Origin: Mobula hypostoma
Lineage: Eukaryota
Reading direction: 5' to 3'
Length of the DNA stretch: 64,000 bases
NCBI RefSeq assembly: GCF_963921235.1
Contig: NC_086097.1
Coordinates: 87,484,001 to 87,548,000 of the forward strand
The position numbers and the translations under genes were made by a program. Every line of letters starts with the position of its first letter. Position 1 is the stretch's first letter. Of this stretch, positions 4,425-52,840 are shown piece after piece. The notes beneath the pieces are model-generated. The model searched no databases and was not told the origin of the DNA. It worked only from the letters and a program-made list of their open reading frames with translations.

Positions 4425-4742
4425 TAGATAAGATTAACTTCATTTGTCACGTGTGCATTGAAACATACAGTGAAATGTGTCATTTGTATCAAATCAATTC
4501 AGTGACAATTATACTGGGCAGCACGCAAGTGTTGCCATGTTTCTGGTGCCAACGTAGCATGCCCACAATTCACCTTAACTGCACATCTTTGGAATGTAGG
4601 ACAAAACCAGAGCACTGGGGGAAACACGCTCAGTACTGAGGAGAATGTCAAATTCCTCAGAGACACCAGCAGGAATTAAACCCTAGTCTTATGGCTGGCA
4701 TTGTAATAGCATTATGCTAACCAGTATGCTACTATGCTACTA
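4425..4742 (-). mobile_element. tRNA-derived SINE (V-SINE-like variant)
   Basis: Reverse of the SINE head (ttgtaatagcattatgctaacc...) and core (ctttggaatgtaggacaaaaccagagcac). Confidence 0.6.
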
Positions 4743-4743
4743 T

Positions 4744-5873
4744 GAGGGTCATGGTTTTGACTTCTCCAATGCGTTCAACACCACCCACCCTGCTCTGCAG
4801 GGGGAGAAGCTGACAGCGATGCAGGTGTCATGGATTCTTGATTACCTGACTGGCAGACCACAGTACGTGTGCTTGCAACACTGTGTGTCCGACAGAGTGA
4901 TCAGCAGCACTGGGGCTCCACAGGGGACTGTCTGGTCTCCCTTTCTCTTCACCACTTACACCTCGGACTTCAACTACTGTACAGAGTCTTGTCATCTTCA
5001 GAAGTTTTCGGATGACTCTGCCATAGGTGGATGCATCAGCAAGGGAGATGAGGCTGAGTACAGGGCTACGGTGGGAAACTTTGTCGCATGGTGTGAGCAG
5101 AATTATCTGCAGCTTAATGTGAAAAAGACTAAGGAGCTGGTGGTAGACCTGAGGAGAGCTAAGGTACCGGTGACCCCTGTTTCCATCCAGGGGGTCAATG
5201 TGGACATGGTGGAGGATTACAAATACCTGGGGATACGAATTGACAATAAACTGGACTGGTCAAAGAACACTGAGGCTGTCTACAAGAAGGGTCAGAGCCG
5301 TCTCTATTTCCTGAGGAGACCGAGGTCCTTTAACATCTGCCAGACAATGCCGAGGATATTCTATGAGTCTGTGGTGGCCAGTGCTATAATGTTTGCTGTT
5401 TTGTGCTGGGGCAGCAGGCTGAGGGTAGCAGACACCAACAGAATCAACAAACTCATTCATAAGACCAGTGACGTTGTGGGGATGGAACTGGATTCTCTGA
5501 CGTTGGTGTCTGAAAAGAGGATGCTTTCCAAGTTGCAGGCCATCTTGATCAATGTCTCCCATCCACTACATAATGTACTGGGTGGGCACAGGAGTACATT
5601 CAGCCAGAGACTCATTCCACCGAGATGCAGCACAGAGCGTCATAGGAAGTCATTCCTGCCTGTGGCCATCAAACTTTACAACTCCTCCCTTGGAGGGTCA
5701 GACACCCTGAGCCAATAGGCTGGTCCCGGACTTATTTCATAATTTACTGGCAAAATTTACATATTACTATTTAACTATTTATGGTTTTATTACTATTTAT
5801 TATTTATAGTGCCAAAGTGACGAAAACCAATTTCCCCCAGGATCAATAAAGTATGACTATGACTATGGCTATG
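4744..5873 (+). mobile_element. Rex1/Babar-type LINE, 5'-truncated, RT C-terminal half still open
   Basis: ORF 4714-5718 has FDFSNAFNT, GAPQGTV, KFSDDSA, YKYLG and RLYFLRR motifs; caataaa is followed by an (atgact)n tail. Confidence 0.9.
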
Positions 5874-10205: not shown

Positions 10206-11302
10206 AATCCCTCCATTCACCCCACATCCTAATACCTTTCAAATCTGTCTTGAATATACTCAGTGACTGAACATCTTCAGCTCTCTTACAAAGATTCACT
10301 GTTCTCTGAGTGAAGGCATTTCTTTTCATCTCCATACTGAATGGCCAATTCATTGGTTTGATACTGTGACCCCTGGTTTTAAACACCCCAGCCTGGGAAA
10401 ACATTAACGCCACATCTAATCTGTGAAATCCTGTAATAATCTTGTATCTTTCGGTTTATCTATGCTCCCCTCATAGGACAATCTACCCGTCCCAATAATC
10501 AACATGGTGAACCTTTAATGCATTCTCTTTATTACAAGTACATAATTTCTGAGGCAATGAGAATATTAGGCCTATGCATAATATTCCTGATGTATTCTAA
10601 CTAGAGTCTAGTTTAAATGCACTGTGGTATCTTTGTTTTTGTACTCAAACCATTTGCTATTTTGTTGTTGCTTCATATGCAGGTAATTTTCTTTTCACAC
10701 TTATAATTGTTTTTTGTCAAGCCACTCCTCCAGTTCATGGCTGCATCGATGGACAATGGCAAAGCTGTCTCAGGTCTTGGTGATAGGGTATGTTTGGACC
10801 AGGTGGGGGCCATCTTGAATTGGGGCACTACAGGGGTAAGCTGGGGTTTGTCGGGCACCCGATCGATGTACGTACTGTTTGTGCTGTTTTGGTATGTCAA
10901 CTTCTGAGTCTATTTGTGGCTGTCCAGTTTTTTATGTAGTAGCTACAGTAAAGCCCGGGAGGAGTGAGGTGGGGTTGTTGATCAGATCTCCACCGGGGGT
11001 GGAGGGGAGGTGCTCATGTGCCAGTACTGGCATCATTCAGTGTGTTCGTCATAGGAGCTGATATTGTTCAAGTTGTAGAAAGGTTTTCAGGTTTTGAGTT
11101 GGAAAGTTGGAGGAGTATTTTTGATGAGTTTATGAACTGGAAAGTTACTGGGCATATTTTGGATATGCTTCTGGAATTTTGCTGAAGTCAATCTTCTGCG
11201 GATCTCTGGGGGTGCTATTCTGCTCATTGTTAGGAGTAATTGGACAGGCGTGGATTTTAGGGCTCCTGAGATTATTCTCATAGAGGTATGAAGCTGTGTA
11301 TT

Positions 11303-11457
11303 CATAGTCATAGTCATATTTTATTGATCCCGGGGGAAATTGGTATTCATTACAGTTGCACCATAAATAATTAAATAATAATAAAACCATAAATCATTAA
11401 ATAGTAATATGTAAATTTTGCCAGGAAATAAGTCCAGAACCTGCCTATTGACTCAAG
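11303..11457 (-). mobile_element. Short 3' fragment of the same Rex1 family as 4744-5873
   Basis: Reverse complement of ~5708-5870 including the (atgact)n tail; GTATT duplicated at 11298-11302 and 11458-11462. Confidence 0.85.
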
Positions 11458-11811
11458 GTATTGATAATGTTTGTGCGAGCACTTCTCTCCCAGGTGGGTG
11501 TGCAATATTCAGTGACTGAGAAACATGGTGCTAGGCTAGATGTTCATAACACTGACTGGTTAGCACCCCATCTGGTTCTCGCTACCTTCCTGATCATGGT
11601 CGTTCTGCATTTTAGTTTATTTGCAATATTCTGAAGGTGGGTCTTGTATGAGAGAGTTCAATCTAGTGTGACTTCTAAGTACTTTGGGTCTAGGTCATTG
11701 GGTAGCTGTTTGTCATTTAGTTTGATATTAAGTTTAAATTTGGTTAGTTGGTTATCCTGATGAAATATGGAAGTTACTGTTTTGTTGACATTCATATTTA
11801 TGTACCACTTT

Positions 11812-11945
11812 AGGCAGGCGGTGCCAAGGCAGCCAGCGAGAACAAGCTGGAGGAGAGACTGTATTCGGTGCTGTCGCAAGATCGAAGAAGATGGAGGTGC
11901 ATAGCCGCCAACCCTGGATTCGGGACAGCACCCACTGACTGACTG
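11812..11945 (+). mobile_element. 5'-truncated copy of the chimeric RTE-tailed element carrying a ZFTRAF1/CYHR1 fragment
   Basis: Encodes GGAKAASENKLEERLYSVL-SQDRRRWR; (ctga)n tail; perfect 8-bp TSD ACCACTTT (11804-11811 and 11946-11953); about 90% identical to the 3' end of the copy at 41943-42489. Confidence 0.88.
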
Positions 11946-13339
11946 ACCACTTTGAAAAGTACTCCAAACCCAGCTCCCAAATGGACAGACTTGCGTCTGC
12001 CCCTACTGGGCCACACTTCATCATGAATCAAGGCAACTTTTCAATCAATTTTGCTGTCAAGGCCAATGTACCATTTGCCTTCCAAATCGCCTGATGTACC
12101 TGTACATTAACTTGCAGTCATTTGTGAAGAAGGACAGCTCAGTTTCTTGGAACACCAATGCTTTTCAGTATCTGACTATCTGAGAAAAACTTTTGAGTTT
12201 TTCTCATTTTTCCACATAATATTCCATCTGCTACGTCTTCACAATTCACTTATATGGATTTCCCTTGGGAGTTTCTCTGTATCTTAGTCATGTCACATCT
12301 TAATATCATCAGTAAACATAGATATTTTGCTTTTTTAAATCATTTATATATGAACAGCAGAACGCCCACCCGTCACAGCCTTACAAACCTAAAAGACATA
12401 GTTTTCCTGTTCTCTGTCATCTCTTAACCATTCCTCAGTCTACACCAGTATTACTGTGAGCCTTACATCATGTAGTTTTGTTTTATAATCTCTTACCAAA
12501 GGTGTTCTGAAAGCCAGGCTCACCATTTCCCCAATCACATCTGAGGTAAGAAAAGGAGGAAAAGAAGAGGAACAGCCGAAGGAAAAGCATGGTAGAAAGC
12601 GATGGCAAGAGGGTTTCTCTGGCAAATCTGTGGTGAATCGCCTTTCAGTGCAACTGAGAACCAGAGGATCAAACCAAAGAATCACATTGGGTTAGTAAGT
12701 AACAAATCTTGAACATCATCTCAACTTGAACTGATAAATAGCAAGTTAAATTGACAGCATACAAAGTAATTCCCAACTACATGAAGAAGCCTATTCCCCC
12801 TTGCCAAAACTGAGAGCCCCGTATCTATTCAGCTGGTTACAGGCTCAGAAACCTAACTGATTTGCTAAACGTGATCTTCTTTTCATGAATCAATGTAGAC
12901 TCTGCCCAATCCTATTATTATTTTCTAAGTGCCCTGCCACTGCTTCCTTAATAATAGATTTTATCATTTTAAGAGCTGTGACTGACAGCCAGAAAATAGG
13001 ATTAGTCTGGATAGCTTTTACTTTTGCTTGGCATGGTACAATGGGCAGACCGACCTCTTGTTGTGCCATAAATTTCTATGACAACACGCATATGAGGCTT
13101 CTAAAAGTTGTGGCTGAGGCAGTGTTGATGGTGGCTGCCAAAATTCGCCTGATTCTTAGATAATCGCAGCAGACTGGGAGATAATTGAATGTTATATTGG
13201 TATTTAAGAAGAGGGAGAAAAGAATTGGGGAATCAAATGCTAATTACCCTGGCATCTGTTATCTGAAAAATAGAGAGATGTCACTCCTGATGTGGTGACA
13301 GGGTACTAGGAAAATGCTTCCACCCTCAAGGTAGTCCTG

Positions 13340-17027: not shown

Positions 17028-18155
17028 TAGAAACATAGAAAACATACATCACAATACAGGCCCTTCGGCCCACAAAGCTGTGCCGAACATGTCCCTATCT
17101 TAGAACTACCTAGGCTTTACCCATAGCCCTCTATTTTTCTAAGCTCCATGTAGCCATCCAGGAGTCTCTTAAAAAACCCTATTGTTTCTGCATCCACCAC
17201 TGCCACCGGCAGCCCATTCCACACATTCACCACTCTGCATAAAAAACTTACACCTGACATCTCCTCTGTACCTACTTCCAAGCACCTTAAACCTGTGCCC
17301 TCTTGTGATAGCCATTTCAGCCCTGGGGAAAAGCCTCTGACTATCCACACGATCAATGCCTCTCATTATCTTGTATACCTCTATCAAGTCACCTCTCATC
17401 CTCTGTCGTCCCAAGGGAAAAAGGCCGAGTTCACTCAATCTATTCTCATAAGGCATGCTCCCCAATCCAGGCAACATCCTTGTAAATCTCCTCTGCACCC
17501 TTTCTATGGTTTCCACGTCCTTCCTATAGTGAGGCCACCAGAATTGAGCACAGTACTCCAAGTGGGATCTGATCAGGCTCCTATATAGCTGCAACATTAC
17601 CTCTCGGCTCTTAAACTCAATCCCACAATTGATGAAGGCCAATGTACCGTGTGTCTTCTTAACCATATAGTCAACCTGCGTAGCAGCTTTGCGTGTCCTA
17701 TGGACTCGGACTTCAAGATCCCTCTGATCCTCCACACTGCCAAGAGTCTTACCATTAATACTATATTCTGCCATCATATTTGACCTACCAAACTGAACCA
17801 CCTCACACTTACCTGGGTTGAACTCCATCTGCCACTTCTCAGCCCAGTTTTGCATCCTATCAATATCCCCTTGTAACCTCTGACAGCCCTCCACACTATC
17901 CACAACACCCCTAACCTTTGTGTCATCAGCAAATTTACTAACCCATCCCTCCATTTCCTCATCCAGGTCATTTATAAAAATCACAAAGAGTAGGGGTCCC
18001 AGAACAGATCCCTGAGGCACACCACTGGTCACCGGCCTCCATGCAGAATATCACCCGTCTACAACCACTCTTTGCCTTCTGTGGCAAGCCAGTTCTGGAT
18101 CCATAAAGCAATATCCTCTTGGATCCCATGCCTCCTTACTTTCTCAATAAGCTTT
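17028..18155 (-). mobile_element. CR1 LINE, 5'-truncated, RT domain open; inserted between inverted PLE termini
   Basis: ORF 17169-18032: TSGVPQGSVLGPLLFVIFINDLD, KFADDTK, HLEYCAQFW, RGDLIEVYK; (ttctatg)-type tail at ~17030. Confidence 0.93.
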
Positions 18156-40952: not shown

Positions 40953-41942
40953 AAAAAAAAAAGTGGTATTTCTCATGAGTTCAGATTGTATTTTACATTT
41001 AACATAACGTGCAGTAATCAATATTGTAAATTAAAGGAATACATCAGTTAATTTTATTAGTGGCAAGGCCCACATGTACTAATGAGGCAGCACAGGAGAC
41101 TGAAGAGAGATTTAATTGTATATAAATGTGAGATGCCTGTAATGGAACAGGGCCTATAATCCCTATGCAGAGGGATTAATATCTTCAGGAAAAGTTAATT
41201 GACTGAAGAATTTGTGAAAAGTTGAAGAAAATTTTTATTTTTTCAATCAGTGATCTAAGTGTGTACAGGTATCCCCACCTTTGAAAGATTATACTGTTAT
41301 CAATCTACATACACTTCAAGGACTAGTTTACTTCATTGTTCAGTCTCCATGACAGGGTTCAGCTGTCAATTATGACTGTTTAAGTAGTGGGTTCTCCCCC
41401 CACTCCCACCAAGCATAAGATAAGTTAAAACTTTATTTATCCCAAAGGAAATTGTTGTTGCAAAGTTGCTCAGTCAGAAATATATACTTTAAAATACAAA
41501 ATGTAAGTATTGAGGTACGAAAAAAATATACAAAATGTACATTTGAAAAGTAATATTGCAAAATACAGATGTGCCATGAGACCATATACTTATATAGTTA
41601 AGGAGGAGGAGTTGTAGAGTATTATAGCCACAGGGAGAAAGGATCTCCTGTGGCTTTCAGTGGTGCACCTCGATGAAATCAGTCTGTTACTAAAAGCTGA
41701 TCCTCTGTTTGTCCAGTATGTCATGGAGGGAGTGAAAGGGATTGTCCATAATGCTCTGCAACTTCTGCAGCATCCTCCTGTCAGACACAACCACCAGGAA
41801 ATCCAGTTCTACTCCCAGATCGGAACTAGCCTTCCTGATGAGCTTATTGATCTTCTTGGCATCAGCTGCTCTCACCCTGCTGCCCCACTACAGTGTGGAA
41901 TAGAATGCCGGCTACTACTGAGTGGTATATCATCTGCAGCAT

Positions 41943-42489
41943 TGTCAGTCAGTGGGTGCCATCCTGAATCCGGGGTTGGCGTCTATGTACCTCCATCTTC
42001 TTCGATCTTGCGACAGCACTGAGAACAGCCTCTCCTCCAGTTTGTTCTCACTGGCCGCCTTGGCACCGCCCACCGCCACCCCCGCCAAACTCGAGTCCGA
42101 GGCCGTATCGGCCTCCAGCCGCGGCTGCTTCTTTGAGCTCAGCCTTTCCTTAGGTGGAGGCCTTGGGCAGGTCCAGGCACACGGTGCAGCGCCCAATTTC
42201 ATCATGTCTCTTCTAACTAGGTGCATAGCATACGATTCGTAGATACATGGTGAGGCTTTAATCTCTTCCATGGAAGATAGCCATTAGCTCACAAGGAGCT
42301 CATCCGCTCTTTGTCCGGTCTTGTATTTTTTAGTCCTCCTGTGTGTCCTCACACCCTCCTCACCAGACTAAGTCCAGTGGGGGAGCCGCCCCAAGTCGCT
42401 GACCACTCGACCATAGCCCCCGGCTGAGCGCCTGCCCCCTGCTGAATTTCTCTGAGCGTCCGGCGCCCGATCGAAGACCAAACCACTAT
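41943..42489 (-). mobile_element. Chimeric non-autonomous RTE-tailed retroelement carrying a host exon fragment
   Basis: Splits Rex1 between CSTM and LQM; TSD AC(T/A)ATGC; (ctga)n tail; RTE-like C-terminus MMKL(A)QDRRRWRYIDANPGFRMAPTD interrupted by host sequence. Confidence 0.85.
42013..42190 (-). pseudogene. ZFTRAF1: Circularly permuted fragment of the first coding exon of ZFTRAF1/CYHR1
   Basis: 42190-42156 encodes [11 protein letters not shown]; 42157-42013 encodes PPKERL...ENKLEERLFSVL. Recalled vertebrate CYHR1 reads PPKKR...[26 protein letters not shown]. The two ends rejoin seamlessly as GTG CTG T^GC TGC ACC. Confidence 0.85.
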
Positions 42490-43584
42490 GCATAGTACTG
42501 CAGACGTTGAATAACTCGAGCCTCCTCTGGAAGTACAGTCGGCTCTGTCCCTTGTACAGAGCCCCTATATTTTCAGTCTAGTCCAGTTTATTGTCCAGGT
42601 GAGTTCCCAGGTACTTTTAGTCCTGGACAACTTCCACGTCTGTTCCCTTGTTGGAGATGGTAATGCATGGTGTTTTCATCTTCTTGTCCTGGAATCCACC
42701 ACCAACTCCTTTGTCTCATGATGTTGAGCTGCAAGCGATTCAACAAAGTTGCTCAGTACTCTCCTGTCTTAGCCTCTTGTCCCTGGTTGATGCAGCCCAG
42801 AACTGCCGAATTGTCTGAAAACTTCTACAGGCGGCAGGACTCCTAGTCGAAGTGGGGGGGATAGGACAGTCCCCTGAGGTGACCCTGTGCTACTAACCAC
42901 AGTTTCTGATACACGGCTCTGCATCTCACAAACAGTGACCGCCTGAACCCGTAGTCTGTAATCCAGGTCACTAGTGGAGCATCCGTCTGCATCTCTGTGA
43001 GTTTACTCCCTAGTAAAGCAGGTTGTATGGTGTTAAAAGCACTGGATAACTCAAAGAACATGACTCTTACAGTGCTGTCTGGCTCATCCAAATGGGTGTA
43101 AGCCTGTTGAAGCAGGAGCGGTGTCCTTGACTCCAAAATGTGATTGCTAAGCAAACTGCGGTGGTGAGGGGGGAGGTGGCCCAGTGAAAGGTGTGTGTCA
43201 GGACCAGTTTTTCTAATAATTTCATAACATGAGGTCAGTGCTCTGGTCTGTAGTCACTGGGCGTGGTGGGATATGTCGTCTTGGGTAATGGAACTAAGCA
43301 GAATGGTTTCCACAGCACTGGGACTCTCTCCAAGCTTAGATTAAAGATATGTTGAAAGACTGCACCCAGCTGAGTAGCACACACCTTAAGTACGCTTCGG
43401 CTGATGCCATCTGGACCCACTGCCTTGCTTAGGTGAAGTCTGCTGAACTCTCTCCTTACCTGCTCAGCAGTGATGGGATGAGATGTTTCCAACTAATAAT
43501 GTAGTTTTAAATAGTTTATTTTATCTTTAGTGATGCACATTTAATTTGGACAAAATAATTCTTGACTGAGACTTAAGAATTTCT

Positions 43585-50535: not shown

Positions 50536-50537
50536 TA

Positions 50538-51015
50538 TGAGGGGTGATTGATAAGTTCGTGGCCTAAGGTAGAAGGGAGTCAATTTTAGAAAACCTAGCA
50601 CATTTATTTTTCCTACATTTACGCACTTAGTCCAGCGGTCATGGAGCATACGGATCCCTTCTTTGTAGAAGTCGGCGTCTTGGACCTCCAGAAAGTGGTC
50701 CACAGCAGGGGTGATCGATAAGTTCGTGGCCTAAGGTAGAAGGAGATGAGTTATTAACTTCAAACTTTTCTGCATTTTCACTCAAAGAGTTGAACTGCAC
50801 GTGCATGTAACGAGCTGTATAACACATCTTCTACCTTAGGCCACGAAGTTATCAATCGCCCCTGCTGTGGACCACTTCTACAAAGAAGGGATCCATATGC
50901 TCCATGACCGCTGGACTAAGTGTGTACATGTAGGAGGAGACTATGTTGAAAAATAAATGTTTTCTAAAATTGACTCCTTCTACCCTTAGGCCACAAACTT
51001 ATCAATCACCCTTCA
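50538..51015. mobile_element. Mariner (irritans-like) fold-back MITE with four TIRs
   Basis: TA-flanked; TIR tgaggggtgattgataagttcgtggcctaaggtagaagg; transposase C-terminus FYKEGIxMLHDRWTKCVxVG(GDYVEK*) in both arms. Confidence 0.9.
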
Positions 51016-52840
51016 TATGTGAGATTCTCTAAGGCAGCTTGACAGGGTGGATATTTTCATTAGTGAAAGTCATGAACAAGGGGACACAGCTGTGAAATAT
51101 GGTTATCATTGGTTCTGTTCCTTAGAGCAGAGAAGACAAAGTTTAACCAACTGCTTGTGAGAGGGACCCACAAATGGATATTTCTATTGGGTGCAGAAAT
51201 AGTATGAAGGTATGAACTGAGGATTAACATTAGAAGCCAAAAATTAAGGGCAATTTTCCTGTACAGCCGTGGTTAGAATACACAAAGCAATAAAGCTGCT
51301 AAAGTACTTTTATTAAGAGGGTGGCAATCAAAGCGTGGAACAAATATGTTAAAGTGAGAGTGAAGGAAGGAGAGATGGTGGTATTTGTCTGAAGGATACT
51401 GGGTTGAAAGAAAACACAAATTGGTGGAAAACATGTTTTTGGAGCCATCATTTGCAAAATCAGCTGTATAATTCATGCAACAGATCTTGTTCTTTCCACA
51501 AGTGGGATTTTTTTTCTGCCTTGGGTTTACATTTTTAATGCTTTGCTTTTCACCCAAGGAGCTAAAGAGTTTGAAACTTGGCGGGGGGGGGGGGTTGGTG
51601 GTTTGAATCACTGATTGAATCTAAATTTCTAGTGATCTAGTTTAAGTTTGCATACATATGCTAAGAAATCTGTTCATAATGGGTGGTAGTACATGCACCA
51701 TGTAGTACTGGTAGCACTGAAATTCTTTTCCTTCAGGGGACACAGGGTGCAACCTTAAGCGTGATTAATCAGGAGTAAATTACTTGAAAGCTTTGTGTTG
51801 AGTTTTTATTTCTATGCAAGTAGTATCAGATATCAATCAAGAGCAAAATAACCCATTTACAAACAAATCAACAGAATGATGTTGTACTGCTCTTACTGTC
51901 TCTTGTAAAGATATGCTTTGTTGAAACTTCTAAAAGAGTTTCTGACCAATTGCTGTAAATGTAATATTGTTTGTCTTGCATTATTTGGCCTCTTGGATGA
52001 GGTTTTTGAATTTCATACCATGATCTTTTTCTCCCCCCCCGCCCCGCCATCCTTCATCACTGTTTTCAGCAGAGACCAGAGTTTATTGTTTCAACCTCAA
52101 TTTAATTACCTGAAGTGAGATAGGATAGAATATCATTGTGTAGTATGGTTGGTATGGTTAAAAAGGGCAATAGAAATTAATATCTTTTCTGGGCATGGCT
52201 AATTCAGCAATAGTTAGTGTACATTTGCTTGCCTATACTTTTTCAGACAGCTGCCATGAATAGTGCATAATTGGAATATTTTGAAAAGTTGGGTATTAAA
52301 GTTCTTTGTTAGAACTTGTGTAATTTTGATGTGTGAAATGTAAAGCTCTTGTATCATTAAAAGAACTGTTGTACTTGAACAAGAAAATCCAGGCTGGTGG
52401 CATGGTGCAGACCTGAAGGTGTGCCACATTAACAGGTTTATCTTTTTGAATTGCCATTGAATTGATAATATGACTGTGCTTAGACTGGGTGATAAAGATT
52501 CCAAAGTACTACCTCAAAGAAGAATATTGCAGTTAGCCTAACCACTTTGCTATTTTTAAGAATCTCATGTAGGCAAAATAGTTGTCATTTTTTTTGCTCT
52601 CTGAGTCCCTCTCCACGACTCTTATTTATACTTTATTGTCGCCAAACAATTGATACTAGAACGCACAATCATCATAGCGATATTTGATTCTGCGCTTCCC
52701 GCTCCCTGGATTACAAATCTATAACCTTTTGACCTGGAGAAATTAGTGAATGATGACGGTTGATCTGTCCAATATCTTGTGTCATGGGAACATACAATCA
52801 TTTAACTTTATCCCTTCACCTAAATCATTAAAATAAGGTA

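Follow-up and report, generated by a model that had tools for sequence, protein, structure and literature searches.

The short chimeric insert at positions 11812 to 11945 of the window, the whole 64-kb stretch of DNA that was analyzed, raises the question of whether it reached this place by a retrotransposition event of its own or was copied at the DNA level from a longer relative 30 kb away. The reading that we favor, at a probability of roughly 85%, is that it is a 5′-truncated retrocopy of an abundant nonautonomous retroposon, in which a 178-nt host coding fragment stands between two LINE ends, putatively of the RTE type.

Structure of the two copies and of their surroundings

The long copy occupies positions 41946 to 42489 of the minus strand (544 nt), as delimited by alignment, its target duplicates, and open frames. 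It is composed, in this order, of a GC-rich 5′ part, a LINE-like coding remnant, the captured piece, a LINE 3′ end, and the tail (ACTG)x2. The captured piece is internal (42190 to 42013, minus strand, 178 nt) and was recognized by composition and alignment, with a GC content of 0.65 and a CpG observed/expected ratio of 0.65 versus 0.41 and 0.28 for the window. We take this piece to be exon 1 of ZFTRAF1/CYHR1 with its order swapped and the LINE-type ends of the element to be those of an RTE. An open frame of 108 codons (42271 to 41948, minus strand) links the LINE remnant, the captured piece, and the LINE end and thus crosses both junctions. It matched no Pfam family at the cut-off, and the 544 nt contain no coding capacity for a reverse transcriptase or endonuclease.

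In the short copy, on the plus strand, 134 nt are present instead of 544; the 5′ end is shortened, and the 3′ end with its simple-repeat tail is intact. The original prediction had placed its limits at 11812 and 11945. The latter held, whereas likeness to the family starts at 11813: the single A at 11812 fits neither the target nor the upstream base of the family, since other copies leave the window at 11813 with a C before it. This A was either added at the 5′ end as an extra nucleotide or substituted later. It is followed by 62 nt of the GC-rich, coding-like captured piece (11813 to 11874), translating as AGGAKAASENKLEERLYSVL, and by 59 nt of the LINE-type 3′ end (11875 to 11933), whose translation begins QDRRRWRCIAANP; both were delimited by translation and run depth. 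The 62 nt are the last of the 178 nt of the captured piece, and the swap junction is absent from the short copy. The microsatellite tail (ACTG)x3 occupies 11934 to 11945, and the bases AC that follow it fit tail and target alike. In the sequencing-run contigs, loose ends past 11947 continue with TGACT.

The two copies align without gaps, 11817 to 11943 against 42070 to 41944 on the opposite strand, with 114 of 127 nt identical. The 13 mismatches are exactly those that had been counted by hand, and the pair constitutes the top inverted repeat of the 64-kb window. The internal junction had likewise been described as shared. A 23-nt word spanning it occurs exactly twice in the window, and two matches were obtained in none of 100 shuffles. 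A second, independent fusion at 11812 to 11945 was rejected, the junction being identical to the base. Because the junction is the same in both copies and the family is abundant, the capture of the host piece can be dated to the founder of the family, probably as a single event that did not take place at 11812 to 11945.

The copies lie in different hosts. Around the short copy, a decayed multicopy LINE extends from 11458 to 12080 on the minus strand (right end approximate), and its frame is continuous across the site when the insert is taken out together with one duplicate. We assume this host to be Ingi/Vingi-like. None of its 29 protein-search candidates was significant, and no Pfam family was assigned. 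The host of the long copy is presumably a Rex1/Babar-like LINE, and it also reads through after removal of the insert and one duplicate. An uninterrupted paralogue of it at 4687 to 5718 (plus strand), which aligns continuously across the site, acts as the empty site of the long copy; in its frame of 343 codons, Pfam identified RVT_1 (E 3e-11) and PF09004 (E 1e-9). The first host and this paralogue gave no significant BLASTP match (E 2.1). The claim that the two hosts differ was sound; the name Vingi came up in no database match.

Several other elements were observed in the window. Within the first host, a second insertion of 155 nt (11303 to 11457, minus strand) has an (ATGACT)n-type tail, an exact 5-bp duplication, GTATT, at 11298 to 11302 and 11458 to 11462, very high run depth, and a further copy at 5704 to 5867. 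Long open LINE frames are found at 4687 to 5718 (plus strand, 343 codons) and at 17169 to 18050 (minus strand, 293 codons). At 50536 to 51017, a palindromic element of 480 bp, with inverted repeats of 88 to 95% nested in it, looks like a miniature DNA transposon.

Homology between the flanks had been named as the observation that would speak against retrotransposition, and it was looked for. Both corresponding pairs of 1-kb flanks scored at shuffle level (23 versus a maximum of 26, and 24 versus a maximum of 32). One of the eight flank comparisons, a noncorresponding pair, was slightly above its 30 shuffles (28 versus 25). A segmental duplication was rejected on the basis of these flanks and of the separate target duplications. 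More broadly, segmental duplication, gene conversion, or repair-templated insertion could have linked the two copies at the DNA level, as their distance of 30 kb, inverted orientation, and 90% identity might suggest. We consider this highly improbable, because the likeness ends at the element ends, the flanks are at shuffle level, and the copies have separate duplications and different hosts.

Target-site duplications and the empty site

The short copy had been credited with a perfect 8-bp target-site duplication of its own. ACCACTTT does occur on the plus strand at 11804 to 11811 and again at 11946 to 11953, 8 of 8 letters identical, flush with both insert ends and without extension on either side; in simulations with pairs of random positions, an exact 8-mer turned up within ±3 nt in 210 of 200,000 trials. 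For the long copy (minus strand), the 5′ duplicate ACTATGC was read from the letters at 42490 to 42496 and the 3′ duplicate ACAATGC at 41939 to 41945, with 6 of 7 letters identical. Since the uninterrupted host paralogue has ACAATGC once at this place, the 5′ duplicate is the one that mutated.

The duplications of 8 and 7 bp both begin with AC and, with two sites only, match the signature of duplication and overlap in the RTE clade. Duplications in this clade are mostly 7 to 15 bp long (PMC6007223, Nishiyama and Ohshima, citing Ichiyanagi and Okada 2008), and the same source describes an A as the first base of the duplication for many animal RTEs and an overlap of 1 to 2 bases between tail and target. 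The microhomology of tail and target that had been proposed is thus visible as an AC start at both sites, but these are only two sites, and with an overlap of 1 to 2 bases already published for the clade (PMC6007223), it is expected rather than new. The 5′ boundary reads GT|AC at both insertion sites (two cases only). A stretch of T about 10 nt upstream of the duplication is described as slight in animal RTE LINEs (PMC6007223); site 1 has TTT at −5 to −7 within T-rich DNA, and no such run lies near −10 at site 2. Folding of the 3′ end was no better than that of shuffles (z −0.69 to 1.31).

To compare this site among organisms, 4 of the 24 listed sequencing runs (X1, X5, X10, and X11, from organisms A, B, C, and D, respectively) were aligned to positions 11400 to 12400; all four consist of contigs. 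It should be noted that organism A may be the source of the window itself, and so X1 does not provide independent support. An X1 contig covers 11918 to 12400, including the 3′ duplicate, with no other letter; it spans the 3′ junction without difference, which is therefore real. An assembly artefact was rejected on account of this contig and because relatives have the family.

In the related organism C, one X10 contig joins 11803 to 11946. It skips 142 nt, corresponding to the insert (134) plus one duplicate (8), and eight letters at the joint, which mark the 5′ duplicate, fit either side. This is an exact, probably orthologous empty site, in which the target is present once. The shorter side of the contig is 39 nt and therefore crosses a deletion joint of the host at about 11962/11963, 9 to 10 nt to the right of the insert. 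Paralogous contigs of the first host exit the window at 11811 and reenter it at 11963. The probable orthology follows from the crossing of this joint, from the exit of the paralogues at 11811, and from the fact that no joint of 11803 to 11946 is among those listed for X1, X5, or X11. Support for the empty site amounts to one contig, with a depth of 12.9 compared with 2.9 to 7.9 for other unique X10 contigs. The joint at about 11963 is crossed by aligned contigs from B, C, and D, and so the host deletion is older than the insertion. A different class of contigs skips 226 to 235 nt with the same few letters between (11746 to 11973 in X5 and X10, 11737 to 11973 in X1); these perhaps derive from a subfamily of the host LINE with an internal deletion.

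In the more distant organism D, X11 has no depth at 11842 to 11943. Its contig for the right flank starts to align at 11946 (37 other letters over 11946 to 12397), which is what an empty site would give. The family is present in A, B, and C and absent from D, and the insertion is present in A and absent from C. The insertion would thus be later than the split from organism C, where the family exists but this site is empty. Presence and absence of both family and insertion can serve as markers to date the capture and in phylogenetic work on these animals.

In organism B, the left-flank contig of X5 (5% other letters) stops at 11811 and is followed by 63 unplaced letters, and a right-flank contig starts at 11952. 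This pattern bears on whether the shortness of the insert arose during reverse transcription at all. A longer copy could have been inserted and have lost its 5′ part by a later deletion. The 63 letters after 11811 in the probably orthologous contig of B, which do not align to 11400 to 12400, would suit such a course, as would the deletion that the host itself suffered 9 to 10 nt to the right. The deletion would, however, need to have its endpoint at most one base away from an intact duplicate, and the right-flank contig of B lacks the tail, so that no filled longer allele was seen. Truncation with extra 5′ bases is, moreover, already described for LINE insertion (PMC4245944). A deletion after insertion therefore seems unlikely, and we keep to truncation upon insertion.

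That the insert results from an independent retrotransposition, as originally proposed, follows from unrelated flanks, separate duplications, hosts that read through, and the exact empty site in a related organism. The empty-site contig also contradicts copying at the DNA level.

Abundance, decay, and coding frame of the family

The short copy is one copy of an abundant family, with about 700 to 2,000 times unique depth in three runs. Summed depth at 11846 versus the unique flank was 12,198/12.9 in A, 81,167/37.9 in B, and 5,460/7.9 in C. The excess over the host-derived part was about 950-, 2,100-, and 690-fold, respectively, with none at 11842 to 11875 in X11; summed depth is no copy number and indicates the order of magnitude only, and its reading as an exact copy number was rejected. 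Contigs exiting at 11946/11947 into unlike flanks (agreement of about 0.4) numbered 102 in X1, 62 in X5, and 82 in X10, and those continuing upstream of 11813 like the long copy numbered 27, 24, and 18, respectively. In this upstream continuation, 27 of 30 letters were like those of the long copy (by eye, X5 and X10). The first bin of the LINE end was 2.4 to 3.8 times deeper than the preceding host-derived bin. Since the LINE-like end is deeper than the captured part, it is common to other elements, and many of the loose 3′ ends may belong to such elements. The second copy had been put forward as evidence that the chimera was mobile. The independence of this insertion stands, but mobility does not hinge on the pair, given that the family is abundant by depth. 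For the same reason, no DNA-level copying needs to be invoked to account for two copies in 64 kb.

Among the 13 differences between the copies, 11 are transitions, and 7 fall on CpG-context sites, which make up 20 of the 127 positions. At 11846, 11858, and 11864, 92 to 99% of the family depth carries the base of the long copy. The family majority thus sides with the long copy, so that these changes arose on the side of the short copy, which again argues against copying between the two. The short copy translates as ...KLEERLYSVL..., and the long copy has F at the Tyr position. Keeping of an ancestral Tyr had been claimed. The residue is there, but position 11863 shows no majority difference among the listed rows (40 of 674), in which 11864 does appear; most likely, only the long copy mutated. 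This suggests that Tyr is simply the state of the family.

In the captured part, six of seven differences fall on third codon positions (P 0.006 to 0.026, three weightings; the test was chosen post hoc). The 5′ junction at 11808 to 11814 reads TTTAG|G after T-rich DNA, which is splice-acceptor-like and in phase with the captured frame. Both observations bear on the possibility that the captured piece is no passenger, the fused frame or RNA being selected in the family or in its copies, or the short copy having become an exon. Selection would agree with the third-position differences and with the 108-codon frame of the long copy, open across both junctions, and use as an exon would agree with the splice-acceptor-like junction in phase with that frame. 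Set against this, the test was post hoc, the whole 127 nt gives 8 of 13 differences at third positions (P 0.03 to 0.09), and four of five changed codons of the LINE part are nonsynonymous. The short copy has no start codon and has an in-frame stop at 11811 to 11813, and among the open frames in the window, none was recognized on inspection as a long, exon-like frame belonging to a host gene. The bias toward third positions in the comparison of the copies is probably due to chance, and a function of the captured piece seems distinctly unlikely.

A more far-reaching version, which we regard as doubtful, is that the founder took up a 178-nt circle from a CpG-island exon of the host and that the piece, acting in a promoter-like manner or by being translated, aided the spread to about a thousand copies and stayed constrained. 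If true, the constraint would explain the third-position bias.

Course of insertion and comparison with known systems

With the insert read as a truncated retrocopy, element RNA ending in (ACUG)n would be bound, via its LINE-derived 3′ end, by the protein that an autonomous partner LINE supplies. Its endonuclease would nick the target, and the tail would pair with one or two target bases, where reverse transcription would start; the overlap of AC is seen directly. With about 133 nt copied and the captured piece only partly included, the cDNA would be joined to the target with one extra base, and a staggered second nick would yield the 8-bp duplication. The structures at both ends are observed, and the process is the one that they point to. 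The copy would then have decayed neutrally, in keeping with most of the differences described above. 5′ truncation and extra 5′ bases are described outcomes of the 5′ joining of LINEs (PMC4245944). The short copy is thus an ordinary truncated member of an abundant family and adds no new mechanism.

Searches were performed for the native gene of the captured piece and for the partner LINE. The protein index returned 470 candidates, none at E≤0.01, and no candidate for a second query. There were no matches among 1.84 billion representatives, no usable match in the ESM Atlas, and two matches in the PDB, both at E≥1. No ORF of an autonomous partner was found in the protein index, among the representatives, or in the metagenome searches. 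The metagenome scans yielded no stretches and 599 pattern matches, none of which was confirmed. Pfam gave nothing at the cut-off for 10 translations, Rfam gave a single chance-level match outside the element, and a search of papers for peptide words found none. These collections appear poor in vertebrate sequence, so that the blanks do not speak against the names CYHR1, RTE, and Vingi. In titles and abstract openings, no paper tied ZFTRAF1/CYHR1 to a retroelement. None of the papers listed by the literature searches described such a family, which libraries of the Repbase type could carry under a neutral name.

The element, putatively of the RTE type, likely belongs to the bipartite nonautonomous RTE derivatives. 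Judged from its sequence, the family appears to be an undescribed form of them. Like the known members Bov-A, RTESINE1/2, WALLSI3, and RTE-N2_Lch (Kojima 2018, PMC5786205; PMC7245038), it is short and noncoding, appears to have retained a LINE 5′ part and a LINE 3′ end followed by a microsatellite tail, and shows high abundance and short target duplications. As described in these sources, the extra sequence of such members is a 5′ head (of tRNA, 5S, 7SL, 28S, snoRNA, or unknown origin) or a CORE-type body, whereas the present family has a 178-nt coding-like host piece between its LINE parts, which the members described there lack.

The closest parallel for the captured piece is found in SVA_F1, with MAST2 exon 1 in 84 elements, and pt_SVA_D6, with STK40 exon 1 in 94 elements (PMC6139936). 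In both, a GC-rich host piece, there a first exon, became fixed in a nonautonomous subfamily and was coamplified. Unlike here, however, the exon was gained by splicing, occupies the 5′ end with its order unchanged, and was moved by L1 (PMC6139936). The SVA_F1-type layout, with an exon at the 5′ end joined through a splice donor, was not found here; the piece is internal (42190 to 42013 in 42489 to 41946), and the element has a non-L1 end. PlatSINE1 and snoRTE of the platypus (PMC7245038, PMC4233971) also join sequence from a host RNA to RTE-derived sequence in a single amplified unit, but their host part is a 5′ snoRNA instead of an internal coding fragment. The noncolinear order of the host gene, proposed for the long copy only, would be shared with circRNA-derived pseudogenes, such as the 33 mouse circRFWD2 copies (Dong et al. 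2016, PMC4897178), which differ in having back-splice exon-exon junctions and, as reported there, no LINE ends. Seen against these systems, the probably orthologous empty site confirms that a LINE-derived element with a host coding-like fragment moved as a unit outside primates and, presumably, outside the L1 system. As judged by depth, its copy number is roughly tenfold that of SVA_F1-type subfamilies.
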